Shown here one piece after another: positions 7,408 to 32,000 of a stretch of 32,000 nt of DNA; position 1 is the stretch's first letter, and the number at the start of each line of letters is the position of its first letter. Source of the stretch: Phycisphaera mikurensis NBRC 102666 (GTDB lineage: Bacteria; Planctomycetota; Phycisphaerae; Phycisphaerales; Phycisphaeraceae); NCBI RefSeq assembly GCF_000284115.1, contig NC_017080.1, positions 1,920,001 through 1,952,000 of the forward strand. The letters are read 5' to 3'. Both the position numbers and the translations under genes were made by a program. The notes beneath the pieces were generated by a model. That model saw only the letters and a program-made list of their open reading frames with translations, was not told the origin of the DNA and searched no databases.

Positions 7408-7655
7408 GGCCGGCGACGTTAGCCGGAACAGGCGATTCGCCCTGTGGCGGGGTTCCCGGCGTTGCGACAACCGGGATGGGCGCAAGAAGACCGATGGCGT
7501 GCTCCCGCGGATCCGCCGGCTCGACATCGCCGCGAGGAGCCGCCGCAGTCGCAACGCGTGGTGCCGCGTCACGGCGGGCCGCAGCCGGTAGCATCGGCTC
7601 CTTTCCGCTTCCCGATCCCGCGGCAACGCCCGCGCCCTTAGGACACCCAGGCTCC

Positions 7656-9911: not shown

Positions 9912-10006
9912 GGCGGGAGCCTAAAGGGCGGCGGGGAAGCTGCCGGCGACCGCCGAAGCCCCGGAAGGGCGGTGGGGCGCGGAGAGGCCCGTAGTCTCCG
10001 CGCCCG

Positions 10007-18505: not shown

Positions 18506-18745
18506 CAGCGTCGACCGCCGGCGCTTCGCGTGCCCGACCGGGCGGGAATCGGGTTCAACCGGCCGTCGGGCATCACGAGAACCTAACAGGAGCGGGAGCC
18601 GCGGCGGGCGGCGATCCGGGTCGCGGGCCCGACGGGGCCAGGCGGGTGCGGGGTCGCTCCGGGGCCCACGGACCGCCGCGGATGGCCGCTGCGGGCGCCC
18701 AGAAGCGGCGGCGGTCCGCGGGTCGGGCGGACCTACGCTGGGCCC

Positions 18746-19966
18746 ATGCGCCGCGACGCCGACACCATGCCGGTCTCTCCGACGGTTCCGCGCTTCCGCG
18801 GGTGGCTGTTCGCGCTGGCGTGCGGGCTCGTCCTGGTGACGGCGGTGATGATCTTCATCGGCGGCAAGGTCACCAGCCACGAGGTGGGGATGGCGGTGCC
18901 GGACGGATTCGAGACCTTCGGGCACTGGTCGCTGGTCGCGCCGCTGAACCTGTGGTGGCACGACTTCGGCACGCGGTGGGAGCACCTGCACCGGCTGCAG
19001 GGCTACGTCGTGAGCTTCACGACGCTCGGCCTGTTGATCGCGCTGTGCTTCGCGGGGGTCCGCGACAAGCGGAAGGGACTGATCGTGGCGGGCGTGGCGC
19101 TGTCGGCGGGCGTGATCCTGCAGGCGCTCCTGGGGATCCTGCGGGTCGACGAGGTCTCCCGCGCCCTGGCGGGCGTGCACGGGGTGGTCGGGCAGCTGTT
19201 CTTCGCCGCAACGGTGCTGACGGCGGTGCTGGTGGGGCCGGGGTGGACGCGCCGCCTGGCCGCGGTGCGGCGGGGCGAGGCGGCGCGGCGGCGGTGGCCG
19301 ACCGGTGCGCTGGTGCTGCTGGTGGCCCTGGTGGGGCAGCTGGTGCTCGGCTCGGCCGTGCGGCACGCAGGGGCGGGCGAGGCGATCCCCGATTGGCCGC
19401 TGCATTACGGCCAGGTCGTGCCGCCGATGGACCAGGCGGGCGTGGACGCGGCGGTCGACGAGGCCTGGGCGGCGGGGGACTTCGGCGGGACTTTCGAGAT
19501 GACGCGGGTGACCGGCACGGGCGCGGTGGAGACGGTGAGCTCGCGCCCGGCGGTCGAGGCCGGTCAGGTGCACCTGCACCTGACCCACCGCCTGGGGGCG
19601 TACGCCATCACGCTGTTCACGCTGGTGCTGGTCGGCTGGACGCTGCGTCGGGATGCGGGCGTTGCCGCGGCGGAGCCGGGCGCGGCGACGGCGGGGGTGT
19701 CGGCCGGGCTGGTGGTTCTGCTGGCGCTGCAGGTCGCGCTGGGCGTGGCGACGGTGCTCGGGCACGTGCACCCCACGCTGGCGACGCTGCACCAGTCCAC
19801 CGGGGCGCTGCTGCTGGGCCTGGCGGTGGTCTTCGCGGCGCGGAGCTCGGCGGCGATCGCGGCGCGGCGGGCGCTGCCCGCGTCGGCTCGGGCGGACGCG
19901 GCGACACCGTCGGCGGGCGGCCCGGGCTGGACCGGGGCCGGGAGCCTCGCCGGGAGCGTGAACTAG
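18746..19966 (+). CDS. ctaA: Heme A synthase (COX15/CtaA family)
   Basis: The 406 aa polytopic protein has the paired His-containing halves typical of CtaA (WEHLHRLQGY, GVHGVVGQL, HLHLTHRLGAY, LATLHQSTGALL). It is followed directly by ctaB. An alternative start is ATG 18767. Confidence 0.8.
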   Translation: MRRDADTMPVSPTVPRFRGWLFALACGLVLVTAVMIFIGGKVTSHEVGMAVPDGFETFGHWSLVAPLNLWWHDFGTRWEHLHRLQGYVVSFTTLGLLIALCFAGVRDKRKGLIVAGVALSAGVILQALLGILRVDEVSRALAGVHGVVGQLFFAATVLTAVLVGPGWTRRLAAVRRGEAARRRWPTGALVLLVALVGQLVLGSAVRHAGAGEAIPDWPLHYGQVVPPMDQAGVDAAVDEAWAAGDFGGTFEMTRVTGTGAVETVSSRPAVEAGQVHLHLTHRLGAYAITLFTLVLVGWTLRRDAGVAAAEPGAATAGVSAGLVVLLALQVALGVATVLGHVHPTLATLHQSTGALLLGLAVVFAARSSAAIAARRALPASARADAATPSAGGPGWTGAGSLAGSVN

Positions 19967-20902
19967 GTGCAGGCCCACGCCGCCTCCGAGCGCACGCGGA
20001 CGCCGGCCGCGCGGGCGGTGGCCTGGTCGGACTGGGTGGCGCTCACGAAGCCGCGGATCACGCGGATGGTGGTCGTCACGGCGGGGCTCGGCTTCCTGAT
20101 GGCCACCCTCGCGGGCGCAACGTGGACCTGGGCGGGGCTGCTGGGCACGCTGGCGGGCACGGCGGCGAGCTGCGCGGCGGCGGGGGTGTGGAACCAGGTG
20201 ATCGAGCGGGAGGCGGACGCGCGGATGAGCCGCACGCGCTCGCGGCCCGTGGCGGCGGGTCGGGTCTCGCCGCGCGACGCGACGGGCTTCGCCGCGGTGC
20301 TGGCGGTGCTCGGCCAGGGCCTGCTGTGCACCTTCGGCACGCCGCTGGCCTCGGCGCTGGCGGCCGCCACGATCGTCCTCTACGTCGGGCCGTACACGCT
20401 GCTGAAGCCGAAGACTCCGGCGTCGCTGTGGGTCGGGGCGGTGCCGGGGGCGTTGCCGCCGGTCATCGGCTTCGCGGCGGCGAGCGCGGGCTTGGCGGGA
20501 ACGCCCTGGTATGGCGCCACCTCCGCCGCGGTGTGGTGGGTCTTCGGGGTCATGTTCTTCTGGCAGATCCCGCACTTCCTCGCCATCGCCTGGAAGCTGC
20601 GGGACGACTACGCGGCGGGCGGGCTGGCGATGCTGCCGGTGGTGGACCCCGGCGGCCGGCGCACGGGCCGGCAGGCGGTGGCCGGGGCGGCGCTGCTGCT
20701 GGCGTGCGTCCTCACGCCCGCAGCGACGGGAACGCTGGCGGTCTGGGCGGCGGTGCCCTGTGCCCTCGCGGCCGCGGCGTACCTGGGCCTCGCCGCGGCC
20801 TTCGCCAAGGGGCTGGATCCGGTCGCGACGCGGCGGCTGTTCCTCGCGTCGCTGGCGGTGCTGCCGCTGATGCTGGCGCTCTTCGCGGTGGGGGCTCTGT
20901 GA
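19967..20902 (+). CDS. ctaB: Protoheme IX farnesyltransferase (heme O synthase)
   Basis: The GTG start lies immediately after the ctaA TAG stop (19964-19966). UbiA-family motifs are present: LTKPRI, NQVIEREADARMSRTRSRPVAAG, FFWQIPHFLAIAW. Confidence 0.9.
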   Translation: MQAHAASERTRTPAARAVAWSDWVALTKPRITRMVVVTAGLGFLMATLAGATWTWAGLLGTLAGTAASCAAAGVWNQVIEREADARMSRTRSRPVAAGRVSPRDATGFAAVLAVLGQGLLCTFGTPLASALAAATIVLYVGPYTLLKPKTPASLWVGAVPGALPPVIGFAAASAGLAGTPWYGATSAAVWWVFGVMFFWQIPHFLAIAWKLRDDYAAGGLAMLPVVDPGGRRTGRQAVAGAALLLACVLTPAATGTLAVWAAVPCALAAAAYLGLAAAFAKGLDPVATRRLFLASLAVLPLMLALFAVGAL

Positions 20903-21912
20903 GCGACGCCGCGCCGCCCGCCGTGCTCGTCGAGGGCCTGCGTCACGCTTACGCCGGCGGGCGGGAGGCGCTGCGTGGCGTCGGGTTCCGCGTCGAGCCC
21001 GGCGAGATCGCCGCGTTGCTGGGCCCCAACGGCAGCGGCAAGAGCACCGCCTTCCGGATCCTCGCGACGCTGATGAGGCCCGCCGCGGCGGCGGGTCCGT
21101 CCGGCCGGGTGGAGGTCTTCGGCGCTTGCCCCTGGGAGAACCCTCACGCGGTGCGGGAGAAGATTGGCGTCGTCTTCCAAAGCCCCAGCCTCGACGGCGA
21201 GCTGACGGCGGAGGAGAACCTCCGCTGCCAGGGCAGGCTGCAGGGGCTGCGTGGGGCGTCGCTCCGGGAGGCGGTGGGGCTGGGGCTGGAGCGGGCCGGA
21301 CTGGTGGCGCGGCGTGGCGACCGGGTCCGCGGCTTCTCCGGCGGCATGAAGCGGCGGCTGGAGGTGGCCAAGGCGATGCTGCACGGGCCCGAGCTTTTGC
21401 TGCTCGACGAGCCCGACGCGGGGCTGGACCCGGCGGCGCGGGCGACGCTCTGGGAGCAGCTCGACGCGCTGCGGCACGGGGCGGGCGCCACGGTGTTGCT
21501 GACCACCCACCTGATGGATCTGGCGGCGCGGGCCGACCGGCTGGTGCTGCTCGACCGCGGGTCGGTGGTGCGGACCGGGACCGCGGCGGAGTTGGTGGAC
21601 GCGGCCGGCGGCGAGGCGGTCCGGCTGGAGCCGGCCGATGGCGACGCGGCGGCCCTGGCCGATGACCTCCGGGGCGAGGCGGGGCTCAGCCGGCTCCGGG
21701 TGCTCCCGCACGGCCCGCGGCCGGCGCTGCGGCTGCGGAGGGCGGACGCGGCGGCGTGGGTGCTCGGGTTGCGGGAACGCTGGCCGGACCGCTTCAGCCG
21801 CGTGAGCTACGGCCCGGCGACGCTGGAGGACGCCTTCGTCGAGCTCATCGAGCCCGCGGCCGAGGTGGAGCCGGCCCCGCCCGCGAGGCGGGGCCGCGGG
21901 CGGGGCCGGTGA
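20899..21912 (+). CDS. ABC transporter ATP-binding protein (ABC-2/DrrA-CcmA type), with no cognate permease in the window
   Basis: GTG 20899 overlaps the ctaB stop (GTGA). It carries Walker A GPNGSGKST, a Q-loop, signature FSGGMKRRL, Walker B LLLLDEPDAGLD and an H-loop TTHLM. A C-terminal extension of about 100 aa resembles that of ABC-2 ATPases. Confidence 0.85.
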   Translation: MSDAAPPAVLVEGLRHAYAGGREALRGVGFRVEPGEIAALLGPNGSGKSTAFRILATLMRPAAAAGPSGRVEVFGACPWENPHAVREKIGVVFQSPSLDGELTAEENLRCQGRLQGLRGASLREAVGLGLERAGLVARRGDRVRGFSGGMKRRLEVAKAMLHGPELLLLDEPDAGLDPAARATLWEQLDALRHGAGATVLLTTHLMDLAARADRLVLLDRGSVVRTGTAAELVDAAGGEAVRLEPADGDAAALADDLRGEAGLSRLRVLPHGPRPALRLRRADAAAWVLGLRERWPDRFSRVSYGPATLEDAFVELIEPAAEVEPAPPARRGRGRGR

Positions 21913-23267
21913 CCGGGGGGAGCGCCTTCGGCGGGCCGCGACGCGTGATCGGGCATCCGCGGACCGCCGGCCTTTCGCCGGTCGCGGCGCTGCGGTCCGC
22001 GGATTCCGCCGGCGACCGGGCATTCCTGCTGCACTCCGGGCGGTACGACGCGGCGCACGCGCGCTACAGCGTGCTGGCGCGGGCGGACGGGGCGGTGCGT
22101 TGGTCGGAGGGCGACGCGGCGGACCCCTTCGACCAACTCGGGGCCGCCGCGGGCGACGGCGCCCTGTGGCTGGGCTTCCTCGGCTACGACCTGGCGCGGC
22201 GGGTGGAGCGTCTCCCCGGCGGGGCCGTCGGCGACCGGGCCTGGCCGGGGCTCGCGTTCCACCGCTGCCCCGGCTGGTTGGAGCACGACGCCGCGGCGCC
22301 GCCCGGATCCCGGTGGGCCGCTTGCGGCGAGCTGGCGGGCACGCCCGACGACGAGCTGGTGCGGATCTTCGGCCTCGGCGAGGGCCTCGCCGCCGCGGGC
22401 TTCGCCGCCGGCCCGGCCGCCGCGGACCGGCCCGGAGCCGAACACGCCGCGGCGGTCGCCGCGGCGCTGGGCTACGTCGCCGCGGGCGACGTCTTCCAGG
22501 TGAACGTGGCCCGCCGCTGGGGCGGGAGCTTCCGGGGGAGCACGGCTGCGCTCTACGCGGCGCTGGCCGAAGCGGCCGGGCCCTGGTACGGGGCCCACCT
22601 CCCCTGCCCGGGCCTCGGGCGCCTCGCGGACGCGGCGCTGTGCTCCGCCTCGCCGGAGCTGTTCCTGGAGGTGGAGCCCGGGGGCTGGGTCACGACGCGG
22701 CCGATCAAGGGCACCGAAGCCGCGGGCGGAGCCGGGCTCGAGGCGTCCTCCAAGGACGCGGCCGAGCTGGCGATGATCGTCGACCTGCTGCGCAACGACC
22801 TGGGCCGGGTGTGCCGGCCGGGGTCGATGGCGGTGCCGGTGCCGCGGGCGGTGGAGGACCACCCCACCGTGCGGCACGGCGTGGCGACGGTGCGCGGTCG
22901 GCTGCGGGCGGAGGCGGACCTCGCGGACCTGCTGCGGGCCACCTGGCCGGGCGGCTCGGTCACGGGGGCGCCCAAGGTGCGGGCGATGGAGATCATCGAC
23001 GAGCTCGAGCCGGTCCGGCGGGGGCCGGCCTACGGCGCGATCGGCGGGATCCGGCGGGACCCCGCCGCGGCCGCCGCGGGCGAGGGCTGGCGCGTGCGCC
23101 TGAACCTGGCGATCCGCACCCTGTGCGTCGCCAACGGCCGCTACGACTTCCACGTGGGCGGCGGGATCGTCGCCGGATCGCATCCCGCGGACGAGCTGGC
23201 CGAGACGCACGTCAAGGCCGCCGCGATGCTCGCGGCGTTGCGTTGCGGGGCGGGCAGCCCCGGCTGA
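21909..23267 (+). CDS. pabB: Chorismate-binding enzyme, aminodeoxychorismate synthase component I-like
   Basis: GTG 21909 overlaps the ABC ATPase stop (GTGA). Motifs are SPELFLEV, TRPIKGT (the Lys in PIKGT is characteristic of PabB rather than TrpE), AELAMIVDLLRNDL, PGGSVTGAPK and GGGIVAGS. Confidence 0.75.
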   Translation: MTGGSAFGGPRRVIGHPRTAGLSPVAALRSADSAGDRAFLLHSGRYDAAHARYSVLARADGAVRWSEGDAADPFDQLGAAAGDGALWLGFLGYDLARRVERLPGGAVGDRAWPGLAFHRCPGWLEHDAAAPPGSRWAACGELAGTPDDELVRIFGLGEGLAAAGFAAGPAAADRPGAEHAAAVAAALGYVAAGDVFQVNVARRWGGSFRGSTAALYAALAEAAGPWYGAHLPCPGLGRLADAALCSASPELFLEVEPGGWVTTRPIKGTEAAGGAGLEASSKDAAELAMIVDLLRNDLGRVCRPGSMAVPVPRAVEDHPTVRHGVATVRGRLRAEADLADLLRATWPGGSVTGAPKVRAMEIIDELEPVRRGPAYGAIGGIRRDPAAAAAGEGWRVRLNLAIRTLCVANGRYDFHVGGGIVAGSHPADELAETHVKAAAMLAALRCGAGSPG

Positions 23268-23332
23268 GCGATGCGCAGCCTGCGGGCGGCGGCGGCACCG
23301 GGCCGCTCGCCGGCGTCCCGCCGCTGCCGCGA

Positions 23333-24289
23333 TCACTCGGGCGCTTCGAGCGTGCGCAGCGAGAGGCCCGCGGCGACCAGCTTCTCCTTGATCTCATCGA
23401 GCGTGGTGGCGCCGAAGTTCTTCACGCCCATCAGCTCCGCTTCGGTCATCATGACCAGGTCGCCGAGGCTGTCGACGCTGAGCAAGGCGAGGGCCTTGCG
23501 GGCCCGCACCGAGAGGTCCAGCTCGCCGACGCTCCGCTCCATCAGGTTGCCCTCGCCGGACTCGGCCTCGACCTCGGAAAGCCGCTCCTCGCGGGCCTTC
23601 TCCTGCGCCCGCTCGAGGTCCTGGCCCAGCCGCAGCCCCTTCTGGGCGAGCATCGACTTGATCTCGTCGATGCTGGCCTCGCCGAAGTTCTTGTAGCTGC
23701 GCAGCTCGGCCTCGGACACGCGGAGGAGGTCGCCGAGGGTCTTGATGTCCATCTTGCGCAGGCTGTTGCGCGTTCGGTAGTCCATCTCGAAGTCCGTCAC
23801 CGGCACGTCGAGCAGGGCGGCGTGGCGATCGTCCCGCTTCTCCTGGTCGTCGTCGATGACCATCTCGCGCGAGGCGAGGATGTCCTTAATGAACAGCCGG
23901 GCCCGGGCGTGGTTGGGGTCGGTCGCCAGCACCTGGCGGACGCAGCGCTCGGCCTGGGGCAGCTTGCCGCGGTCCTCGTAGAGCACGGCGAGGTTGATGA
24001 GCGCGTGCAGCGGCGCTTGCGGGGTGCGGACGCACTCCTCGTAGAGGTGGATCGCCTCGTCCTCCTCGCCGAGCAGGTCGAGGTTGTAGGCCAGGCGGAA
24101 GCTGATGTTCGCGTCGTCGGGGTCGGCCGCGTAGGCGGCTTCGTACTTCTCGACGGCGCCGACGCGGTCGCCCGCGTCCTCGAGCTTCTGGCCCTCGCCG
24201 AAGGCCTTGCCCGCGGCGGCGCTGTCGCGGAAGTCGCCCTCGGCGGCGGTCTCGTCGGTGGAAGGGGTCGTTGCTTCGGATTCGGCCAT
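23333..24289 (-). CDS. TPR-repeat protein with two RNA polymerase alpha-subunit C-terminal-domain-like (helix-hairpin-helix) modules
   Basis: The ATG at 24289-24287 gives MAESEATTPS. The N-terminal half is TPR-like (AVEKYEAAYAADPDDANISFRLAYN, LAVLYEDRGKLPQAERCVRQVLATDPNH). Two repeats follow that match the alpha-CTD pattern (RTRNSLRKMDIKTLGDLLRVSEAELRSYKNFGEASIDEIKSML and VRARKALALLSVDSLGDLVMMTEAELMGVKNFGATTLDEIKEKL). Confidence 0.75.
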   Translation of the reverse strand: MAESEATTPSTDETAAEGDFRDSAAAGKAFGEGQKLEDAGDRVGAVEKYEAAYAADPDDANISFRLAYNLDLLGEEDEAIHLYEECVRTPQAPLHALINLAVLYEDRGKLPQAERCVRQVLATDPNHARARLFIKDILASREMVIDDDQEKRDDRHAALLDVPVTDFEMDYRTRNSLRKMDIKTLGDLLRVSEAELRSYKNFGEASIDEIKSMLAQKGLRLGQDLERAQEKAREERLSEVEAESGEGNLMERSVGELDLSVRARKALALLSVDSLGDLVMMTEAELMGVKNFGATTLDEIKEKLVAAGLSLRTLEAPE

Positions 24290-24292
24290 GGC

Positions 24293-24349
24293 GGGGCTCC
24301 GGGGCGGGGCGGGTAAGCGGGGCGGGGGGCGGGCCCGCCGGGGGGCGGG
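24293..24349 (+). other. Dense strand-asymmetric G-tract cluster (G-quadruplex-capable) in a divergent promoter region
   Basis: At least nine runs of 3 or more G within 57 nt on the + strand, read directly: GGGGCTCCGGGGCGGGGCGGGTAAGCGGGGCGGGGGGCGGGCCCGCCGGGGGGCGGG. It begins 4 nt from the start codon of the minus-strand alpha-CTD/TPR gene. Confidence 0.7.
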
Positions 24350-24533
24350 ATCGCCGGGAAGCACCGGGAACGGGGAGGACGCGGCGCCGCGAGGCGCACG
24401 AGCGGACCCCGCCCGCCGGGCGCAGGGCGAGGAGGCTAGGCCGGTTGCCGCCGACCCGCAAGGCGAGGTAGGCTGCTTCACCCGAGGCGGAGCGGCCCCC
24501 CGCGTCTCCTCCGCCCGGACCCCCAGACCCGTT

Positions 24534-26429
24534 TTGACCCAAGCCGCGATCCAGGCCGACCTCCCGGGTGCCCTGCCCGCCCGCGGCTTCGATGAGGCCG
24601 AGCGGCTCGTGCGCTTCGGCGGCCCGCCGGACGCGTTCCTCGCCGAGCTCCTGCTGGCGCAGTGCCGCTTCGCCGGCGCGGCGGGCGGGGCGGTGCTGCG
24701 CCGAGCCGAGGGCGGCCCGGGCGTGGAGTGTCTGCAGAGCGTGCCGCCGGGTGCGGCGGGTCGGGATCCGGAGGAGGAGGCGGCGCCGCCTTGGCTGCGG
24801 GAGGTGGCGGGGGTGGTCGGTGGCGCCGGCGGCTGGCCGCGGGAGGCGGCGAGCTTCCCGCTGGAGTCCGGCGACGGGCTCTACGGCGAGGATGGGCAAC
24901 GCCACGCGGTGGTGCTGCCCCTGGGCGCCTTCGCCAGCCTCGACGCCGTGGCGGCCTTCGTGCTGGAGGGCTGCGACGCCGACGAGGCGCACCACGCCTG
25001 CCGCCGGCTGGCCTTCACGCTCTCGATGCTCACGCTCTACGAGGCGCGGCAGGCGCTGGGGGCGCGCGAGGCGGACCTCCGCGGCCTGGCGCTCGCGACG
25101 GGCACGCTGGCGGCGCTGAACCGGCAGGGCCGCTTCGGCAGCGCGGGCCTGGCCTTCTGCAACGAGGTCGCGAGCCGCTTCGAAGCCGAGCGCGTCAGCT
25201 TCGGCGTGGTTCGCGGCCGGTACGTGAAGCTGCGTGCGATGAGCCAGACCGAGCACGTGCACCGCAAGATGGCGGCGGTGCAGGCGATCGAGGCGGCGAT
25301 GGAGGAGTGCCTCGACCAGGACACGGAGGTGCAGCACCCCGCGGCGCCCGAGGAGCCGGTGGTGGCGCGGGCCGCGGCGGAGCTGGCGCGGCGCGAGAGC
25401 TGCGACGCCGTGATCTCGCTGCCGCTGCGGCGAGCCGGAGAGGCGGAGGCGGTGGTGACGCTGGAGCGGGCCAGCCGCGGGCTCGACGCGGCCGAGGCGT
25501 CCTTCCTTCGGCTCGCTTGCGAGCTGTGCGGCCCACGCTTGCTGGAGATGGAGGCCGCGGACCGCTGGGTGGGGGCGCGGGCCGCGGCCTCGGTCCGCCG
25601 CGGCCTCGCCCTGTTCGTGGGCCCAACGCACACCTGGGCGAAGGCGGCGGCCATCGGGCTGCTGGCGGCCCTTGCCGTGGTGACGCTGGTGGACGTGCCC
25701 TTCCGGGTGGATGCGCCCTTCGAGCTGCAGGCGGTGACGCGGCGGCAGGTGCCCGCGCCCTTCGAGGGCTACCTCGCCACGGTCGCGGTCCGCGCCGGCG
25801 ACGTGGTGCAGGCCGGCGACGTGCTCGGCGAGCTGGACACCTCGGAGCTTCAGCTGGAGCGTGCCCGGCAGCAGGCCGAGCGGCTCACGCACCAGAAGGA
25901 GGCCGACGAGGCGCGGCGGGAGGGCAAGACCGTGGACGTGCAGATCGCCGAGGCCCGCGCGGCCGAGGCGCAGGTTCAGGTGGAGCTGAACGACCACCAG
26001 ATCGCTCAGGCGACGCTGCGGGCTCCGGTGGCGGGGAGCGTCATCTCCGATGACCTCCAGCAGAAGCTCTTCAGCCCGGTGAAGCGCGGCGAGCTGCTGT
26101 TCGAGGTCGCCCGGCTGGGGCAGCAGCGGGCGGAGATGCGGGTGAGCGACGAGGACATCCCCTGGGTCCGCGAGGGCCAGACCGGCAGCCTCGCCCCGGC
26201 ATCGACGCCGGGCGATCCGGTCGGCTTCCGGGTGGGCCGCATCGAGCCCATCGCCGAGGTCGTTGACGGCGAGAACGTCTTCCGCGTGCGGCTGGAGCTG
26301 CTGGAGAGCCGCCCGTGGTTCCGCCCCGGTGTCGCCGGCGTCGCCAAGATCGACGTCGGCAAAGGCAGCATCCTCTGGGTCTACACGCGCGAGGCGGTCA
26401 ACTTCGTGAGGTTGAAGCTGTGGCTGTGA
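24534..26429 (+). CDS. HlyD-family periplasmic adaptor with an N-terminal cytoplasmic region of about 330 aa (tandem GAF-like domains)
   Basis: The C-terminal 300 aa have an adaptor layout. It runs TM (AAAIGLLAALAVVTLV), lipoyl-like hairpin (GYLATVAVRAGDVVQAGDVLGELD), coiled coil, LRAPVAGSVI, then a beta-barrel. The N-terminal GAF assignment is pattern-based. TTG 24534 is proposed as the start: third-position GC is high after it and poor before it (gta, cga, gga, aga, gtt). The ATG at 24207 would overlap the divergent gene. Confidence 0.7.
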   Translation: MTQAAIQADLPGALPARGFDEAERLVRFGGPPDAFLAELLLAQCRFAGAAGGAVLRRAEGGPGVECLQSVPPGAAGRDPEEEAAPPWLREVAGVVGGAGGWPREAASFPLESGDGLYGEDGQRHAVVLPLGAFASLDAVAAFVLEGCDADEAHHACRRLAFTLSMLTLYEARQALGAREADLRGLALATGTLAALNRQGRFGSAGLAFCNEVASRFEAERVSFGVVRGRYVKLRAMSQTEHVHRKMAAVQAIEAAMEECLDQDTEVQHPAAPEEPVVARAAAELARRESCDAVISLPLRRAGEAEAVVTLERASRGLDAAEASFLRLACELCGPRLLEMEAADRWVGARAAASVRRGLALFVGPTHTWAKAAAIGLLAALAVVTLVDVPFRVDAPFELQAVTRRQVPAPFEGYLATVAVRAGDVVQAGDVLGELDTSELQLERARQQAERLTHQKEADEARREGKTVDVQIAEARAAEAQVQVELNDHQIAQATLRAPVAGSVISDDLQQKLFSPVKRGELLFEVARLGQQRAEMRVSDEDIPWVREGQTGSLAPASTPGDPVGFRVGRIEPIAEVVDGENVFRVRLELLESRPWFRPGVAGVAKIDVGKGSILWVYTREAVNFVRLKLWL

Positions 26430-26430
26430 G

Positions 26431-26562
26431 AGCGGAGATGAAGCGGGTGAAGAAGTGAAGAAGTGAGGAAGCGAAGAAGTGAGCAGCAGCAGTGGATCCA
26501 GGAACCGGCCGGCGGAGCCGCCGCGTCGTGCCTGACTTCTTCTCTTCTTCGCTTCTCCGCTT
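26431..26562 (+). repeat. Intergenic inverted array of octamer repeats
   Basis: Tandem octamers GTGAAGAA, GTGAAGAA, GTGAGGAA, GCGAAGAA, GTGAGCAG occupy 26447-26486. Complementary units TTCTTCTC, TTCTTCGC, TTCTCCGC occupy 26537-26560. The segment 26449-26468 is complementary at 18 of 20 positions to 26531-50, and AGCGGAGA (26431-38) pairs with TCTCCGCT (26554-61). A 12-nt direct repeat CCGGCGGAGCCG occurs at 26509-20 and again at 26565-76, abutting the ATG at 26577. Confidence 0.85.
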
Positions 26563-26576
26563 GACCGGCGGAGCCG

Positions 26577-28766
26577 ATGCAAAGACCCACCTTCCACGAG
26601 TCCTGGTACCGGATCTCCGCCCTCCGGCCGCGGCTGCGCGCGGTGGTCCAGGTGTTCCGGCAGCGCTTCCGCGGCAAGACCTGGCACGTGCTGCGGGACC
26701 CCGCGAACAACCAGTTCTTCCGGCTCGACGACGCGGGCTTCCGCTTCGTCGGGCTCCTCGACGGGAAGCGAACCGTGGGCGAGGCGTGGGAGGCCACCGC
26801 GGCGCAGCTGGGCGACCGGGCCCCGACGCAGGGGGAAGCGGTGCAGGTGCTCGGCCAGCTGTACCAGAGCAACCTGATCGCGGCGGAGCTGCCGGCCGAC
26901 GCCGAGGGCATGTTCGACCGCTTCAAGCGGCGCCGGCACAAGCAGGTGGGCGGCTACCTGATGAACATCATGTTCGCGAAGATTCCGCTCTTCGACCCCG
27001 AGCACCTGCTCGAGCGGTGGAAGCCGGCCTTCATGTGGATCTTCGGCCCCGTGGGCGTCGCGCTCTGGCTCGCGCTGATCGCCGCCGGGTTGCTCTCGCT
27101 GGGAGGCCGCGCCGAGGAGCTGCTCGGGCAAGCCGGCAACATCCTGGATCCCTCCAACTGGATCTTGCTCTACGCCGCATTCGGCCTGGCGAAGGTGCTC
27201 CACGAGTTCGGCCACGCCTTCGCGGTCAAAGCCTTCGGCCGCTCGGAGCAGGTCGAGGCCGAGGTGCACGTGCTCGGGGTGATGCTGCTGGTGCTCGTGC
27301 CGGTGCCGTACGTGGACGCGACGGGTTCCTGGGCGTTCCGCTCGAAGTGGCGGCGGGCGTTCGTGGGCGCGGCCGGCATGTACGTCGAGCTGGCGCTCGC
27401 CGCGGTGGCGGCGATCGTCTGGTCGCAGACGTCGCCCGGCGTGGTGCACGCGCTGGCGTACAACGTGATCTTCATCGCCGGCGTCTCGACGATCCTCTTC
27501 AACGCGAACCCGCTGATCCGCTTCGACGGGTACTACATCCTCTCGGACCTCACCGAGACGCCCAACCTCTACCAGCGCAGCAACGACTACCTCAAGTACC
27601 TCGTGCGCCGCTTCGCCTACCGCGTGCGGGAGCCGCACAACCCGGCCCAGAGCCCGGCCGAGCGGCCGTGGCTCGCGGCCTACGGCGTGTGCTCGCTGGT
27701 CTACCGGGTGCTGCTCTTCGGCGGGATCCTGCTGTTCGTGATCGGCAAGATGTTCTTCGTGGGGGCGTTGATGGCGGCGGTCTCCATCGTCGCCTGGCTG
27801 TTCGTGCCGCTGGGCAAGTGGGTGCGTTACCTGCTGACCTCGCCGGAGCTGGCGCGGACGCGTGGGCTGGCGCAGGGGGTCTCGCTGGCGGCGGTGGCGC
27901 TCGTGGCCCTGGGGGTGGGCGTGGTGCCGGCCCCCGACCGGCAGCGGGCGGCAGGCCTGGTGGAGCCGGACCGCTTCGAGGCGGTTTTCTCCCGCAGCGA
28001 CGGCTTCATCGACGCGGTGCTGCCGACGCTGTCGCCCGCGGACCAGGGCGTGCTGGTGGCGGCGGGCAACCGCGAGCTGCTCGCCCGGCGCGACCGGCTG
28101 GAGGCGCGGCTGGGCCTGCTCGCGGCGCAGCAACGCAAGGCCGAGCGGGAGGACGTCGCGTCGGCGCAGGTGGTGCGGCGGCAGCACGAGGCGACGGCGG
28201 GGCAGCTCGCCCGCGTGCGGTCGGAGATCCAGATGCTCTCGCTGTCTGCCCGCGTAGGCGAGGCCGGGCAGCCGGCGTGGTGGGTGGGTCCGGACGTCGA
28301 CCGCTTCAAGGGGGCGTTCGTCCCCCGGGGGGAGGCGCTGGGGGTGGTCGCTTCTCTGGAGGACCTGGTGATCCGCGTGGCCGCCGACCAGCACCTCGGC
28401 CCGCGGCTGCGGGGCGAGGAGTGGATCGGCCGGGCGGTGGAGGTGAAGACCGCCGGCCGGCCGGACCTCACCTACGCGGGCCGGGTGGAGCGCGTGGGGC
28501 CGGCCGGCACCGAGCAGCTTCCCTCGGCGGCGCTGGGCTTCGCCGCCGGCGGACCCATCGCCACCGACGCCCGCCGCACCGACGGGACCACGGCGGCGGA
28601 GGCCGTCTTCGAGGTGCGGGTGCGGGTGCTGCCGACGGCGTCCGACCAGCCGCCGCTGCGGGCGGGCCAGCGGGTGATGGTGCGCTTCCGCTTTGCCGAC
28701 CGCCCGCTGATGACCCAGGCGGTGCTGGCGCTGCAGCAGCTGTTCCAGGGCCGGGTGGGCGCGTGA
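26577..28766 (+). CDS. Polytopic site-2-protease (peptidase M50)-like zinc metalloprotease fused to a C-terminal HlyD-like adaptor region, with an N-terminal PqqD/RRE-like domain
   Basis: The 729 aa ORF has HEFGH at 27201-27215 and NANPLIRFDG (NxxPxxxxDG) at 27501-27530, the two S2P zinc-site motifs, both inside hydrophobic segments. The N-terminus (FFRLDDAGFRFVGLLDGKRTVGEAWEATAAQLG...AVQVLGQLYQSNLI) resembles PqqD-like peptide-binding winged helices. The C-terminal 290 aa have a coiled coil plus beta-rich HlyD-like layout. Confidence 0.8.
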   Translation: MQRPTFHESWYRISALRPRLRAVVQVFRQRFRGKTWHVLRDPANNQFFRLDDAGFRFVGLLDGKRTVGEAWEATAAQLGDRAPTQGEAVQVLGQLYQSNLIAAELPADAEGMFDRFKRRRHKQVGGYLMNIMFAKIPLFDPEHLLERWKPAFMWIFGPVGVALWLALIAAGLLSLGGRAEELLGQAGNILDPSNWILLYAAFGLAKVLHEFGHAFAVKAFGRSEQVEAEVHVLGVMLLVLVPVPYVDATGSWAFRSKWRRAFVGAAGMYVELALAAVAAIVWSQTSPGVVHALAYNVIFIAGVSTILFNANPLIRFDGYYILSDLTETPNLYQRSNDYLKYLVRRFAYRVREPHNPAQSPAERPWLAAYGVCSLVYRVLLFGGILLFVIGKMFFVGALMAAVSIVAWLFVPLGKWVRYLLTSPELARTRGLAQGVSLAAVALVALGVGVVPAPDRQRAAGLVEPDRFEAVFSRSDGFIDAVLPTLSPADQGVLVAAGNRELLARRDRLEARLGLLAAQQRKAEREDVASAQVVRRQHEATAGQLARVRSEIQMLSLSARVGEAGQPAWWVGPDVDRFKGAFVPRGEALGVVASLEDLVIRVAADQHLGPRLRGEEWIGRAVEVKTAGRPDLTYAGRVERVGPAGTEQLPSAALGFAAGGPIATDARRTDGTTAAEAVFEVRVRVLPTASDQPPLRAGQRVMVRFRFADRPLMTQAVLALQQLFQGRVGA

Positions 28767-30820
28767 GCAGCGGTGTGGTCGCCCCGACGCCGCGGACCGT
28801 GGCCGCCGGAGAGCTCCTCGGCTCGCGGTCCGCGGGATCCGGCGCGGCCGACGCGGCCACCCGCCTGCCCAGCGGGCGGTGGCGGCGGCTGGCGGCGCCG
28901 TCGGGGCCTCCCACGCCGCTGCGCGGCCTCGACGCGGCTTGGGACGCCGTCGTCGCCTGCGCGGTGCCCTGGGTGCCGCGGCGTCGCCGCTGCCTGCGCC
29001 GCGCGGAGCGGGTGCTGGCTTTGGCGGCGGGGCTGGAGGCCCTGCCCACCGCGGAACTCGCCGAGCAGACCCGGGCGGTCGCCGAGCGCTTCCGCCTCGG
29101 CCGCGACACCGCGGCCGACCTCGACCTCGCGTTCGCGGTCGTCCGCGAGCAAGCCACCCGCGTGCTCGGCTTGCGGGCCTACCCGGTGCAGGTCGCCGCG
29201 GCGATCGCGATGGAGCGCGGCGCCATCGCCGAGGTGGCGACCGGCGAGGGCAAGACGCTGATCGCCACGATGCCCGCGGTGCTCGCGGGCTGGCGTGGCC
29301 GCGGCTGCCACGTGCTCACCGCCAACGACTACCTGGCGGCGCGGGACGCCGAGAAGATGCGGCCGGTGTACGAGGCGTGCGGTCTCACGGTCGCCTCCGT
29401 CGTCGACGCCACGCCGCAGGAGGCCCGGACCGCCGCGTACGCCGCCGGCGTCACCTACACGACCAACAAGGAGGCGGCCGCGGACTTCCTCCGCGACCGG
29501 ATCGTCGCCGGCCGCGACGCCTGCCTCGCGGACGGATTGTTGCGCGAGCTGGTGCGGGGCGCGGGGCTGGGCTCGGGCCGCGGCGTCGCGGGCGTGCAGC
29601 GTGGGCTCGAGCACGCGATCGTCGACGAGGCGGACGCGGTCCTGATCGACGAGGGCACCACCCCACTGATCATCTCCGGAGAAGCCCCCAGCCCCGGACG
29701 GGAGCAGGCCCACCGCGAGGCGGTCGGCCACGCCGACGCCTTCTCCCGCGGCAGGGACTACCGCGTCGACGAACGCTTCCGCGAGGTGGTGATGACGCCC
29801 GCGGGCCGGGCCCGCGTCGCCCGCCTCGCGGGCACCTCGTCGGGCATCTGGAGCGGGCGTCGCCGCGCCGAGGAGCTCCTGAACCAGGCCATCACCGCCC
29901 GCGAGCTCTACCTCGCCGGCCGCGACTACGTGGTGCAGGACGGCAGAGTCGTCATCGTCGACGCCTTCAACGGCCGGTTGATGCCCGATCGCAGCTGGTC
30001 CGACGGGCTGCACCAGGCGGTGGAGGCCAAGGAGCGGCTGGCGCTCTCACCCCCGCGGGAGACGCTCGCGCGCATCTCCTTCCAGCGCTTCTTCCGCCAC
30101 TACCGCCACCTCTCGGGCATGACCGGGACCGCCCGCGAGGAGCGACGCGAGCTTTGGAAAACCTACCGGTGCCCGGTGGTCGCGCTGCCGACGCACCGGC
30201 GGCCGCAGCGGCGCGATCAGGGCATCCGCATCACCCGCAGCCGCGACTCGCGGATCGCCGAGGTCGTGCGCGACACGCAGGAGAAGCGGTCGGTCGGCCG
30301 GCCCGTGCTCATCGGCACGCGGTCGGTGGCCGAGAGCGAGCGGCTCAGCGAAGGCCTCGAAGCGGCCGGCATCCCGCACCGCGTGCTCAACGCCGTACGC
30401 CACGGCGAGGAGGCCGCGGTGGTCGCGGGGGCCGGCGAGGTCGGGCGCGTCACGCTGGCGACCAACATGGCCGGCCGCGGCACCGACATCGCCCTCGGCG
30501 AGGGCGTCGCGGAGCTCGGCGGCCTGCACGTGATCGTCTGCGGGATGAATGACGCCCGCCGCGTCGACCGCCAGCTCTTCGGGCGGGCGGCCCGCCAGGG
30601 CGAGCCGGGCTCGGCCGTGATGGTCTGCTCGCTGCAGGACGGTCTGCCGGTGCAGCACGCCCCGCGCGTGGTGCGGGCCACGCTGGGGCGGCTCTTCCCC
30701 CGGGGGGTCTTGCGGCTGGCGCAGCGGCGGGCGCAGAACCGGGCCCGTTCGCAGCGTGCCGGCGTGCTGAAGCGCGACCGCTGGCTCGCGGAGAGCCTCG
30801 GCTTCGCCGGCATCGAGTGA
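28763..30820 (+). CDS. SecA-like DEAD-motor ATPase, truncated after NBD2 (no helical wing or C-terminal linker, and little or no helical scaffold)
   Basis: GTG 28763 overlaps the stop of the M50/HlyD gene (GTGA), and third-position GC is high from that codon. SecA motifs are present: FAVVREQATRVLGLRAYPVQV, ATGEGKTL (Walker A, 29240-), LTANDYLAARDAE, IVDEADAVLIDEGTTPLIISG (DEAD at 29624-29635), a PPXD-like segment (DYVVQDGRVVIVDAFNGRLMPDRSWSDGLHQAVEAKE), TNMAGRGTDI and RVDRQLFGRAARQGEPGS. Only about 68 residues follow the last motif. The start is uncertain by tens of codons. Confidence 0.8.
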   Translation: MSSGVVAPTPRTVAAGELLGSRSAGSGAADAATRLPSGRWRRLAAPSGPPTPLRGLDAAWDAVVACAVPWVPRRRRCLRRAERVLALAAGLEALPTAELAEQTRAVAERFRLGRDTAADLDLAFAVVREQATRVLGLRAYPVQVAAAIAMERGAIAEVATGEGKTLIATMPAVLAGWRGRGCHVLTANDYLAARDAEKMRPVYEACGLTVASVVDATPQEARTAAYAAGVTYTTNKEAAADFLRDRIVAGRDACLADGLLRELVRGAGLGSGRGVAGVQRGLEHAIVDEADAVLIDEGTTPLIISGEAPSPGREQAHREAVGHADAFSRGRDYRVDERFREVVMTPAGRARVARLAGTSSGIWSGRRRAEELLNQAITARELYLAGRDYVVQDGRVVIVDAFNGRLMPDRSWSDGLHQAVEAKERLALSPPRETLARISFQRFFRHYRHLSGMTGTAREERRELWKTYRCPVVALPTHRRPQRRDQGIRITRSRDSRIAEVVRDTQEKRSVGRPVLIGTRSVAESERLSEGLEAAGIPHRVLNAVRHGEEAAVVAGAGEVGRVTLATNMAGRGTDIALGEGVAELGGLHVIVCGMNDARRVDRQLFGRAARQGEPGSAVMVCSLQDGLPVQHAPRVVRATLGRLFPRGVLRLAQRRAQNRARSQRAGVLKRDRWLAESLGFAGIE

Positions 30821-30851
30821 AGCGGGAGGTGCTGAGGTCGCCGGGTCGCGT

Positions 30852-30902
30852 TATCGGCCCGCCGCCGCCGTCTGGCCCGGCGGAGGCACCCGCTGGCCGA
30901 TA
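30852..30902 (+). promoter_or_regulatory. Stem-loop between the SecA-like gene and fliS (possible terminator or 5'-UTR structure)
   Basis: TATCGGCC (30852-30859) is perfectly complementary to GGCCGATA (30895-30902). A nested CCGCCG/CGGCGG pairing lies inside. The structure ends 10 nt before the fliS ATG. Confidence 0.35.
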
Positions 30903-30911
30903 GATCCCGGC

Positions 30912-31382
30912 ATGACGCCCGCACGACCCGCCCAGGCTCCGAACCCTTACCTCCGCACGAAGGTGATGACCGCGAGCCCCGAGGAGCTGCGTCTCATGCT
31001 GCTCCAGGGCGCCGAACGCTTCGCCAAGGCGGGGCGGAAGGAGCTCGCCGCCGAGACGCCGGACCTCGAGAAGAGCCACGAGTCCCTGATGAAGGCTCAG
31101 CGGATCGTCGTCGAGCTCTCCACGAGCATGAATCCGCGCCTCGCGCCGGAGGTGGTGGAGCGGCTGACCGCGCTGTACACCTACATCTACAAGCTGCTCG
31201 TCGACGCCAACCTCACCCGCGAGCTCGGCCCGCTGGACGAGGCGATCCACCGCATCGCCTACGAGCGGGAGACCTGGGTGCTGCTGATGGAGCAGAACCG
31301 AGCGGAGGCCGGCGGCGACGCAAGCGGCGGCGCGGCGACCACCCGGCAGGCCGCGCTGACGGCGTATCCGCCGGCCGCGTGA
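30912..31382 (+). CDS. fliS: FliS-family flagellar export chaperone-like protein
   Basis: The 156 aa ORF follows the FliS four-helix pattern. Matching segments are NPYLRTKVMTASPEELRLMLLQGAERFAKAG (Y..xxVxTASPxxLxxMLxxGA), RIVVEL, LTALYTYIYKLLVDANL and DEAIHRIAYERETW. No flagellin, fliD or other flagellar genes are in the window. Confidence 0.7.
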   Translation: MTPARPAQAPNPYLRTKVMTASPEELRLMLLQGAERFAKAGRKELAAETPDLEKSHESLMKAQRIVVELSTSMNPRLAPEVVERLTALYTYIYKLLVDANLTRELGPLDEAIHRIAYERETWVLLMEQNRAEAGGDASGGAATTRQAALTAYPPAA

Positions 31383-31666
31383 GCGAGCCCTCGCGGGGGT
31401 TGCGGGGGCGTCGCCGTGCACCGGTCGAGGTTCGGGTGTGCGGCGCCCGGGTGCCACGCCGCTTGCGGGGCGGGGTGCCCGCAGGACACGCGGCAGACCC
31501 GTGCCTCCGCCGGCGTCGCCTCCGGCGACCGCCACCCCGGCAGCGGCGTGCCGCCGACGGTGCCGAGCGTCCGGGTTCTCGCAAGAGAGGGGCGAGGAGA
31601 GGGGCAGGGCCCCCACTTGCTTGCAGCGGGCTCGCTTCGCCGATGCCCAAGCCGCACGCGGATCCG

Positions 31667-32000
31667 TCAAGCCGCGGCCGATCGCCGGGTGAGCGCCTCC
31701 GGGCCGCTGCAGAGCTCTTCGAGGGTCACCGGCGGGCCGGTCAGGTTGCCCTGGACGTGGTCGAGGCCGATGCCCTGCACGCCGGCGAGCTGCTCAGGCG
31801 TCTCCACCCCGCAGGCCAGGGTCGCGAGGCCCATGGCCCGGGCGAAGCCGATGATCGCCTGCAGCACCTGGAAGCGCGCCGTGTCCCCGCCGAGGCCGCT
31901 GATGAAGAAGCGGTCGATCTTTACCGCCCGCAGCGGGAGGCCCGCCAGGAAGGCGAGGGGCGACCGCTCGCGGCCGAAGTCGTCGAGCACCACCGCCAAG
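31667..32000 (-). CDS. EAL-domain protein, C-terminal part only (N-terminus lies beyond the window end)
   Basis: VVLDDFG, AVKIDRFF, ACGVETPEQL and HVQGN align to the EAL motifs DDFGTG, KIDRSF, EGVET.EQ and QGY. The ORF is open to the window edge. Confidence 0.65.
   Translation of the reverse strand, partial: LAVVLDDFGRERSPLAFLAGLPLRAVKIDRFFISGLGGDTARFQVLQAIIGFARAMGLATLACGVETPEQLAGVQGIGLDHVQGNLTGPPVTLEELCSGPEALTRRSAAA

Follow-up and report, generated by a model that had tools for sequence, protein, structure and literature searches.

A SecA paralogue, a site-2 protease-adaptor fusion and a GAF-linked adaptor in Phycisphaera mikurensis: a known three-gene locus and its genomic link with giant LEPR-XLL proteins

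The module and its three genes

The window analysed here, a 32,000-nt stretch of DNA from Phycisphaera mikurensis NBRC 102666 with a G+C content of about 75%, contains a module of three co-directional genes, which were confirmed as open reading frames (ORFs) on the + strand, as stated in a preliminary description made from the sequence alone (Table 1). Their products, each 100% identical to an NCBI P. mikurensis protein, are (i) a HlyD-type periplasmic adaptor, or membrane fusion protein (MFP), extended by a sensor-like cytoplasmic region (gene 1, PSMK_16490), (ii) a fusion of a recognition element for ribosomally synthesised and post-translationally modified peptides (RiPP recognition element, or RRE), a site-2 protease-type membrane core and a second HlyD-type adaptor (gene 2, PSMK_16500), and (iii) a truncated SecA-like ATPase (gene 3). 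This association of genes is not new. It is the locus described in the same genome in 2015 by Kamneva, Poudel and Ward (PLoS One; PMC4452313), and since both the locus (PSMK_16490 and PSMK_16500 included) and a hypothesis for its function were published then, the novelty implied by the preliminary description falls away. What the present analysis adds to the 2015 locus is a link, found here, with giant proteins bearing an N-terminal LEPR-XLL motif, which offers a candidate cargo together with a candidate signal. A literature search found no homologue assigned to a characterised pathway, and we know of no characterised machine in which a SecA motor is combined in this way with a site-2 protease and with adaptors of the tripartite-pump type.

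Profile searches of all three proteins uphold the domain assignments originally made. The product of gene 1, whose boundaries agree among NCBI and two other gene callers, matches the Pfam families HlyD_3 (1.3e-13), HlyD_D23 (9e-12) and Biotin_lipoyl_2 (2.2e-7), and its AlphaFold model (m4b1740c460d9; predicted local distance difference test score, pLDDT, of 89) consists of two alpha/beta modules, a transmembrane (TM) helix and an adaptor. The two modules, which are GAF-like in the model, are connected by a 48-residue helix (aa 149-196), and 22 of 25 orthologues, drawn from several phyla, have a GAF domain (at E<=1e-3, the threshold used for both GAF and Peptidase_M50 counts among 25 orthologues). 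Hydropathy reaches its maximum, 2.22, at aa 372-390. The adaptor resembles MacA, AcrA and MexA (Foldseek E 1e-14 to 1e-12), with PDB profile matches to MacA and LipC.

The fusion read in gene 2 holds in each of its three parts. The PqqD-like RRE scores above the Pfam gathering cut-off (24.1 bits vs 23.4) and is built in the model from three strands (aa 25-31, 34-41 and 46-50) and three helices (aa 52-59, 67-81 and 85-97), with 10 positions invariant across phyla. The membrane core carries the HExxH and NxxPxxxxDG motifs that mark gene 2 as a putative site-2 protease with predicted proteolytic activity, and no change was seen in H209, E210, H213, N309, P312 or D317 among 78 close and 25 distant orthologues. 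In the protein itself, Peptidase_M50 scores below its gathering cut-off (16.8 bits vs 27.2) and the HlyD_3 match is weak; of the 25 orthologues, 19 match Peptidase_M50, 17 match HlyD_3 and 11 match PqqD. Residues 18-409 also match the NCBIfam daptide_HExxH model over its full length (E 3e-43), although the score against daptide model NF041824 is 148 bits vs a cut-off of 300, and that against the YydH/LiaK model 27.8 bits vs 225. The AlphaFold model (pLDDT 86.9) displays the RRE fold, a helical core whose last helix spans aa 429-449, and an adaptor at the C-terminus. This last part (the C-terminal 270 aa or so) resembles Spr0693, MacA, MexA and AcrA (Foldseek E ~1e-9) and has a PDB profile match to EmrA, and the alpha-hairpins of both adaptors, in genes 1 and 2, are of AcrA/MexA length in the models. 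We infer from the model and from hydropathy seven membrane helices in gene 2, an arrangement that would place the RRE on the cytoplasmic side of the membrane and the adaptor on the periplasmic side. Conservation across phyla is highest in the RRE and the protease core, which fits a conserved ligand.

The product of gene 3 matches SecA_DEAD (1.9e-89), SecA_PP_bind (2.6e-25) and P-loop_SecA (1.6e-43) in Pfam, gives no Pfam match to SecA_SW, and has no TM segment. Besides GEGKT and DEAD, it keeps the motifs TGTA, GRGTDI and GRAARQGEPG (GRxxRQGxPG). It aligns with residues 23-558 only of Bacillus subtilis SecA, at roughly 40-50% identity, and some 45 aa remain after the second nucleotide-binding domain (NBD2), so that the wing domain, the two-helix finger and the C-terminal tail are all absent. 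Its scores are below cut-off for the housekeeping SecA models (533 bits vs 814 for PRK12904; 514 vs 800 for TIGR00963) and for every SecA2 model as well (486 vs 1085, 440 vs 930, 393 vs 725 and 378 vs 1100). The 120 best homologues are without exception 608-697 aa long, all have these three domains and SecA_SW is missing from each, and in dozens of genomes the alignments extend to residue 681-685 of gene 3; the first 75 residues or so are poorly conserved among homologues. The tetranucleotide GTGA, where the end of gene 2 would overlap the first candidate start of gene 3, is located at 28763-28766, as reported. The translational coupling of the two genes that was read from it is plausible on sequence grounds and depends on the choice of start codon, which is undecided, since gene 3 has in-frame GTG starts at 28763, 28775 and 28799 among which annotations differ.

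Table 1. Positions of the module, its parts and other features (window coordinates, except where a related locus is named; aa numbers refer to the product of the gene given)
Feature	Positions	Strand	Description
Gene 1 (PSMK_16490)	24534..26429	+	631 aa, TTG start; GAF-GAF / TM / HlyD-type periplasmic adaptor
Sensor-like cytoplasmic region, gene 1	24579..25559	+	GAF-like modules at aa 16-145 and 201-342 (AlphaFold model)
Sole TM helix, gene 1, aa 367-390	25632..25703	+	Hydropathy; model helix 367-385
Periplasmic adaptor (MFP), gene 1	25707..26426	+	Lipoyl, alpha-hairpin aa 437-491, beta-barrel
Gene 1-gene 2 spacer	26430..26576	+	Octamer repeat 26447-26486; hairpin arms 26453-26483 and 26532-26562
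Gene 2 (PSMK_16500)	26577..28766	+	729 aa, ATG start; RRE (PqqD) / M50 membrane core / HlyD-type adaptor
PqqD-like RRE domain, gene 2, aa 18-101	26628..26879	+	Pfam PqqD; AlphaFold model
Membrane core, gene 2, aa 142-449	27000..27923	+	Contains both protease motifs
HEFGH, gene 2, aa 209-213	27201-27215	+	Motif search
NANPLIRFDG, gene 2, aa 309-318	27501-27530	+	Motif search
Periplasmic adaptor (MFP), gene 2, aa 451-729	27927..28763	+	Alpha-hairpin aa 499-552
Gene 3	28763..30820	+	SecA_DEAD protein, 673-685 aa depending on start; NBD1-PPXD-NBD2 and scaffold-helix stub (PPXD, preprotein cross-linking domain)
GEGKT, gene 3	29243-29257	+	Motif search
DEAD, gene 3	29624-29635	+	Motif search
PPXD, gene 3, aa 319-421	29717..30025	+	Pfam SecA_PP_bind, 2.6e-25
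ctaA (COX15), ctaB (UbiA) and ABC ATPase-only gene	18587-21912	+	Abutting or overlapping; followed by a chorismate-binding enzyme
TPR repeats with two RNA-polymerase alpha C-terminal domains	23333-24481	-	RNA_pol_A_CTD 1.9e-34; divergent, upstream of gene 1
FliS flagellar export chaperone gene	30912-31382	+	Next gene 3' of gene 3
Giant ORFs in related loci	L027 14446-22188; L030 14290-22152; L061 7386-15287; L081 14251-22128; L080 3-6932; L078 2-6388		Beside the module

Conservation of the module and its variable partners

With each species represented by a single genome, a scan recovered relatives of gene 2 in at least 597 genomes, and the module is spread over many Gram-negative phyla. Synteny, a point on which the preliminary description could have failed, was assessed in the best 80 loci of these genomes and proved strong: gene 1 lies immediately upstream of gene 2 in 65 of 68 loci, and gene 3 immediately downstream in 63 of 69 loci with room for it. 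Represented among the 80 are Planctomycetota, Verrucomicrobiota, Lentisphaeria, Desulfobacterota, Beta- and Gammaproteobacteria, Rokubacteria and Methylomirabilia, and the order gene 1-gene 2-gene 3 is kept across at least six phyla.

Around this constant core, other genes come and go. Many loci have a third adaptor, a small HlyD protein of about 280 aa encoded either 5' of gene 1 or 3' of gene 3, and in Verrucomicrobiota and Desulfobacterota a gene for a TolC-like outer-membrane efflux protein (OEP) lies inside the cluster. In 22 of 82 loci (e.g. L013 1981-2370, L072 1924-2241, L086 7593-7964), gene 1 is immediately preceded by a DUF3467 gene, the product of which is 100-130 aa long with a disordered and charged N-terminus; judged by its position, it is probably the unnamed cluster 5 of Kamneva et al. 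This protein has no PDB relative by sequence or profile, and the idea that it might be a SecB-like chaperone was rejected (hhalign probability 0.6% against an approximate Escherichia coli SecB sequence).

The agreement with the secondary SecA_DEAD and type-I-secretion-related locus of PMC4452313 extends to parts and to proposed mechanism. That locus comprises a SecA_DEAD protein without wing and scaffold, an M50 protease with HlyD, a GAF-HlyD protein, one additional HlyD protein and, in some cases, an OEP, and the authors hypothesised that SecA_DEAD is the ATPase, M50 the membrane component, HlyD and OEP the conduit and GAF the sensor. In their phylogeny, secondary SecA_DEAD proteins are separate from canonical SecA. 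Their S2 Table lists PSMK_16500 in cluster 1 and PSMK_16490 in cluster 3, with no cluster 2 (small HlyD) entry for P. mikurensis, and they noted that small HlyD and OEP genes may sit elsewhere in a genome. We likewise find that the P. mikurensis copy departs from the full locus, with the small HlyD (cluster 2), OEP, SapC (cluster 4) and cluster 5 genes missing within 10 kb. The PqqD/RRE domain, RTX or giant proteins and LEPR-XLL are not mentioned in PMC4452313. The searchable literature holds no functional study after it, only a fitness table and a Vibrio genome note besides, and the module is not discussed in the accessible part of a 2021 Chemical Reviews article on tripartite systems.

Giant LEPR-XLL proteins beside the module

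In about 19 of the 80 loci, the module is flanked by giant co-directional ORFs (1,000 to more than 2,600 aa, most of them cut by the edge of the locus), several of which begin only 43-139 nt past gene 3. The Pfam domains found in them are RTX (L030, L061, L080), Big_5/CARDB/beta-helix (L081), Laminin_G/RHS (L027), InlB-B (L047), PKD (L054) and cohesin/cadherin/dockerin/PKD (L078), with one ORF of a scanned set of eight giving no domain match. What they share is the N-terminus. The sequence F-E-x-L-E-P-R-x-L-L-S-A-D is common to 9 of the 11 giants in which this end is available, and 7 of 9 scanned N-termini pass the cut-off of the NCBIfam model NF012209 ('LEPR-XLL domain'). Further LEPR-XLL giants lie beside the module in L088, L136, L194, L200 and others, and the genomes with such neighbours belong to several phyla.

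The association holds in both directions. In the six-frame translation of the loci (1.83 million aa), the strict motif occurs in 11 ORFs from 10 loci, plus one variant, all of them beside the module, and nowhere away from it. Conversely, metagenome contigs were scanned for a DNA pattern encoding LEPRxLLSAD, and 12 of the 120 stretches retrieved (median 5.8 kb) carry homologues of genes 1-3, usually with the LEPR gene directly 3' of gene 3 on the same strand. By a rough estimate (which is not a computed control), chance adjacency would be expected far below 0.1% for a module present once in about 1% of genomes. Leader columns that the search pattern did not constrain are conserved too, namely a basic run, F/L-x-F/L and an E at -2 (in 110 of 119). 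A hydrophobic stretch precedes the motif in only 2 of 121 LEPR N-termini, from which it follows that these proteins lack a Sec-type signal. The link between LEPR-XLL and the module was not found in the searchable literature. In the relatives, the evidence at sequence level suggests that the cargo is a giant LEPR-XLL surface protein rather than a small peptide.

Two further observations concern these neighbours. The basic run and F/L-x-F/L-E that precede LEPRxLLSAD (stretches L087-L206) are superficially like the n-region of a Tat signal (RRxFLK), a likeness that was set aside because giant RTX proteins are unlikely Tat cargo. In Pseudomonas sp. MMS21 (L080), a SapC-family gene (6953-7771; Pfam 1.5e-71) lies between a giant RTX/serralysin-like ORF and the GAF-HlyD gene. 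The name SapC comes from the S-layer type I secretion operon of Campylobacter fetus. Two papers in the searchable literature use the term LEPR-XLL, neither of them in connection with the module; one reports a protein from Vibrio, about 8,000 aa long, in which LEPR-XLL is combined with RTX and serralysin domains as in the L080 neighbour.

Relation to known systems

A close functional parallel is type I secretion (HlyBD-TolC, CvaAB-TolC, LapBCE), with which the module shares adaptors made of lipoyl, hairpin and barrel elements and, in its relatives, a TolC-like factor and giant neighbours of the RTX adhesin type. They differ in several ways: (i) type I secretion has an ABC transporter whereas the ATPase of the module is a SecA paralogue, (ii) the type I signal is C-terminal whereas the candidate signal here, LEPR-XLL, is N-terminal and (iii) the module has two to three different adaptors, two of which are fused to other modules. 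In peptidase-containing ABC transporters (PCATs), removal of the leader is coupled to export, as proposed for the module. In a parallel with a PCAT, HlyD and TolC, the SecA-like protein and M50 would stand in for the ABC/C39 unit, although the PCAT protease is of the C39 family and that of the module is an intramembrane zinc M50 enzyme.

Canonical SecA and SecA2 share with gene 3 the DEAD motor (NBD1 and NBD2), the PPXD and all ATPase motifs. Unlike canonical SecA, gene 3 has no wing, no two-helix finger (IRA1) and no C-terminal zinc/SecB-binding tail, and its N-terminus is extended by some 75 variable residues; an insert of 27 aa is present as well. No SecY2, SecY-like or accessory Sec gene lies in the window. 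A comparably reduced motor occurs in giant proteins of Omnitrophota and Actinobacteria, which contain SecA_DEAD and PPXD without scaffold and wing (bioRxiv 10.1101/2023.11.21.568195). The likeness, one of domain make-up, is that of a scaffold- and wing-less SecA motor tied to the export of giant surface proteins; there the motor is fused inside the giant, whereas gene 3 encodes it as a protein of its own (685 aa) and shares an operon with protease and adaptor genes.

For gene 2, the closest known counterparts are the daptide leader peptidase MpaP, which is an RRE fused to a site-2 protease (PMC10028931), and YydH/LiaK, with which it shares an N-terminal PqqD-like RRE followed by an HExxH protease. 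Compared to these proteases, gene 2 has an extra three TM helices and a 280-aa C-terminal periplasmic adaptor, and neither daptide biosynthetic genes nor short precursors were found in the window or in related loci.

A possible export machine and its alternatives

The reading that we favour, with confidence that is evenly balanced, is that the module supplies the core, in the inner membrane and the cytoplasm, of a machine that spans the envelope, does not depend on SecY, and exports and processes leader-bearing proteins. The envelope-spanning complex of the preliminary description is consistent with all findings, including the TolC-like gene and the third adaptor in the clusters of relatives. 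From what is observed (the parts, their motifs, the synteny and the linkage with OEP and LEPR-XLL genes), we infer the following functional steps: (i) the cytoplasmic RRE of gene 2 would bind an N-terminal leader, in relatives most likely the LEPR-XLL leader (basic run, F/L-x-F/L-E-x-LEPRxLLSAD) of RTX/cadherin/PKD-type giants, (ii) the soluble SecA-like motor, with its ATPase and PPXD clamp, would grip the unfolded chain and push it at the expense of ATP, (iii) the chain would cross an assembly made by the gene 1 product, with its one TM helix, and the seven-TM core of gene 2, and its leader would be cut off by the zinc site of gene 2, (iv) the adaptors of genes 1 and 2, joined by the small third one in relatives, would form a periplasmic duct to a TolC-like factor and (v) the tandem GAF region of gene 1 would gate or regulate the machine. 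Recognition of a leader is supported by the match of gene 2 to MpaP-type proteases and by the high conservation of its RRE and protease core. Side support comes from the Omnitrophota and Actinobacteria giants with their SecA_DEAD and PPXD parts, and from a viable transposon mutant of the Ruegeria pomeroyi orthologue SPO2713, which loses fitness in one co-culture. In P. mikurensis, the outer-membrane factor, the third adaptor and the cargo would have to be encoded elsewhere in the genome, since none of them is nearby.

A bolder version would see in the module an undescribed, type-I-like pathway that is independent of SecY and driven by a SecA paralogue, and exports LEPR-XLL giants of up to about 8,000 aa, the leader of which would be read by the RRE and cut by the site-2 protease. 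This is a tentative proposal, which may well prove wrong. If true, LEPR-XLL would stand for a secretion signal of a new class, and a motor of the SecA type could operate without SecYEG; confirmation would define a route not known before for the secretion of giant adhesins and toxins, as well as a new use of RREs outside RiPP biosynthesis. With the LEPR-XLL link, the system can be put to the test in tractable carriers, for instance Pseudomonas sp., Methylobacterium extorquens and R. pomeroyi.

Several points weigh against an export machine of this kind. No channel-type transporter is present in the cluster, we know of no site-2 protease that serves as a conduit for polypeptides, and gene 3 lacks the two-helix finger, which is the chain-pushing element of canonical SecA. 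The pairing of RRE and leader is only conjectural, and the GAF match of gene 1 itself is weak (Pfam, E 0.09, aa 210-333). The link to cargo is genomic and concerns the smaller part of the loci (the motif marks 11 of 80, a giant ORF about 19 of 80), and the P. mikurensis locus is not among them: no LEPR-XLL ORF was found in the window, its +/-10 kb surroundings, two close relatives, Algisphaera or L086, and the motif, even when relaxed, has no occurrence in the window, L001, L083 or L084. Small HlyD, OEP and DUF3467 genes are likewise missing from the window and its +/-10 kb surroundings. Finally, the literature yielded no experiment on transport, cleavage, ligand gating or complex formation by any member of the module.

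Foremost among the alternatives is a RiPP or bacteriocin route, in which the RRE would bind the leader of a short peptide, M50 would cleave it as happens in daptide or epipeptide pathways, the adaptors and an outer-membrane factor would export the product and the SecA-like ATPase would power the process. It draws on the presence of a PqqD/RRE domain, on the daptide metalloprotease and YydH/LiaK models as the best NCBIfam matches of gene 2, on the RRE-site-2 protease fusion that is the leader peptidase of daptide clusters and on a weak match of gene 1 to the NHLP bacteriocin HlyD model (NCBIfam). We judge it unlikely, however, with both model scores far under their cut-offs, no modifying enzyme conserved beside the module in the 80 loci, and no conserved family of small ORFs (25-130 aa) around them other than DUF3467 and antisense shadows, whereas the PPXD clamp and the giant LEPR-XLL neighbours indicate long polypeptides.

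Regulated proteolysis is the canonical role of site-2 proteases such as RseP and SpoIVFB, and the module could instead serve intramembrane proteolysis or quality control: the protease would cut a membrane regulator or a damaged protein fed to it by a SecA-like unfoldase, the GAF region would sense a metabolite and the adaptors would act as a scaffold. A sensor region and a cluster devoid of channel-forming transporter would suit this explanation, as would the finding that in exponential-phase M. extorquens the GAF gene alone is expressed (a reanalysis in PMC4452313). We consider it quite unlikely, because two to three adaptors of the TolC-docking type and an OEP gene in relatives would make little sense in the absence of a duct, the ligand to which an RRE points is a soluble leader, and no sigma/anti-sigma pair is conserved beside the module.

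That the module might be a defence or efflux device, i.e. a MacAB-like pump with a built-in protease that captures incoming antimicrobial peptides or other toxic compounds and degrades and expels them, appears very unlikely. The cytoplasmic RRE and SecA-like motor fit the outward handling of a cytoplasmic substrate, the LEPR-XLL giants are associated reciprocally with the module, and none of the three proteins has a match in PADLOC, the library of which covers anti-phage systems only. On the other side are the structural proximity of both adaptors to MacA, AcrA and MexA, the many loci without a nearby cargo gene (that of P. mikurensis included) and the behaviour of the R. pomeroyi orthologue SPO2713, a transposon mutant of which is viable and loses fitness only in one bacterial co-culture (PMC10041152).

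The last explanation, that gene 3 is a frameshifted or misassembled housekeeping secA and the trio mere chance neighbours, has in its favour the NCBI label 'protein translocase subunit SecA', and is refuted by the lengths and uniform domains of all 120 best homologues, alignments that reach residue 681-685, scores under every SecA and SecA2 equivalog cut-off, synteny across phyla, the separate place of canonical SecA in the phylogeny of PMC4452313, and the presence of FliS as the next gene downstream.

Other features of the locus

The structured repeat spacer noted between genes 1 and 2 is indeed there. It carries four or five GTGAAGAA octamer units, which the rest of the window lacks, together with a complementary pyrimidine arm, and folds into a long imperfect hairpin (-66.6 kcal/mol, z -2.75). 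The purine/pyrimidine hairpin is present in three Phycisphaera-lineage genomes with units that differ (GTGAAGAA in the window vs GAGACG vs GAGAGAAA): in contigs L083 (9789-10000) and L084 (9777-10000), where the genes are 83-86% identical, the spacers are longer and the stem is kept, and 16 of 63 predicted pairs are altered on both sides (RNAalifold; window, L083 and L084). Most other lineages have a gap of nearly zero between genes 1 and 2, which makes the spacer hairpin lineage-specific. There is no U-tract after the stem, an Rfam search over 23000-32000 found no family (only a chance snoRNA match, E 0.96), and a promoter and terminator scan gave results no better than shuffles. An internal terminator after the GAF gene was inferred in M. 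extorquens by Kamneva et al. (PMC4452313). The hairpin is a possible attenuator, or could be an RNA-processing site.

Both immediate neighbours of the module are conserved inside the lineage, namely a divergent TPR/RNA-polymerase-alpha-CTD gene and a FliS gene. The former adjoins the module in three Phycisphaera-lineage genomes although the outer flanks differ. The latter also follows gene 3 in L083 and in a second P. mikurensis contig (L002), L084 stops short of this position, and in L003, the next closest relative, it is taken instead by genes for the small HlyD and DUF3467 proteins.

The preliminary description had the window free of ABC, RND and MFS pumps and of TolC-like, SecY and SecE genes. 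This is correct for membrane pumps, TolC-like proteins and SecY/SecE but not for ABC proteins as such, since an ABC ATPase gene lies at 20899-21912. This gene adjoins those for heme a synthesis, with two other genes between it and the module; it is the only transporter-related gene nearby and appears to be unrelated to the module, which contains no ABC transporter either in the window copy or in the 80 related loci. Further upstream, a 639-codon stop-to-stop frame (9995-11914, + strand), the sole Pfam match of which is a C-terminal RDD domain (1.2e-10), lies in the G+C-richest stretch of the window (0.83 at 10001-11000).

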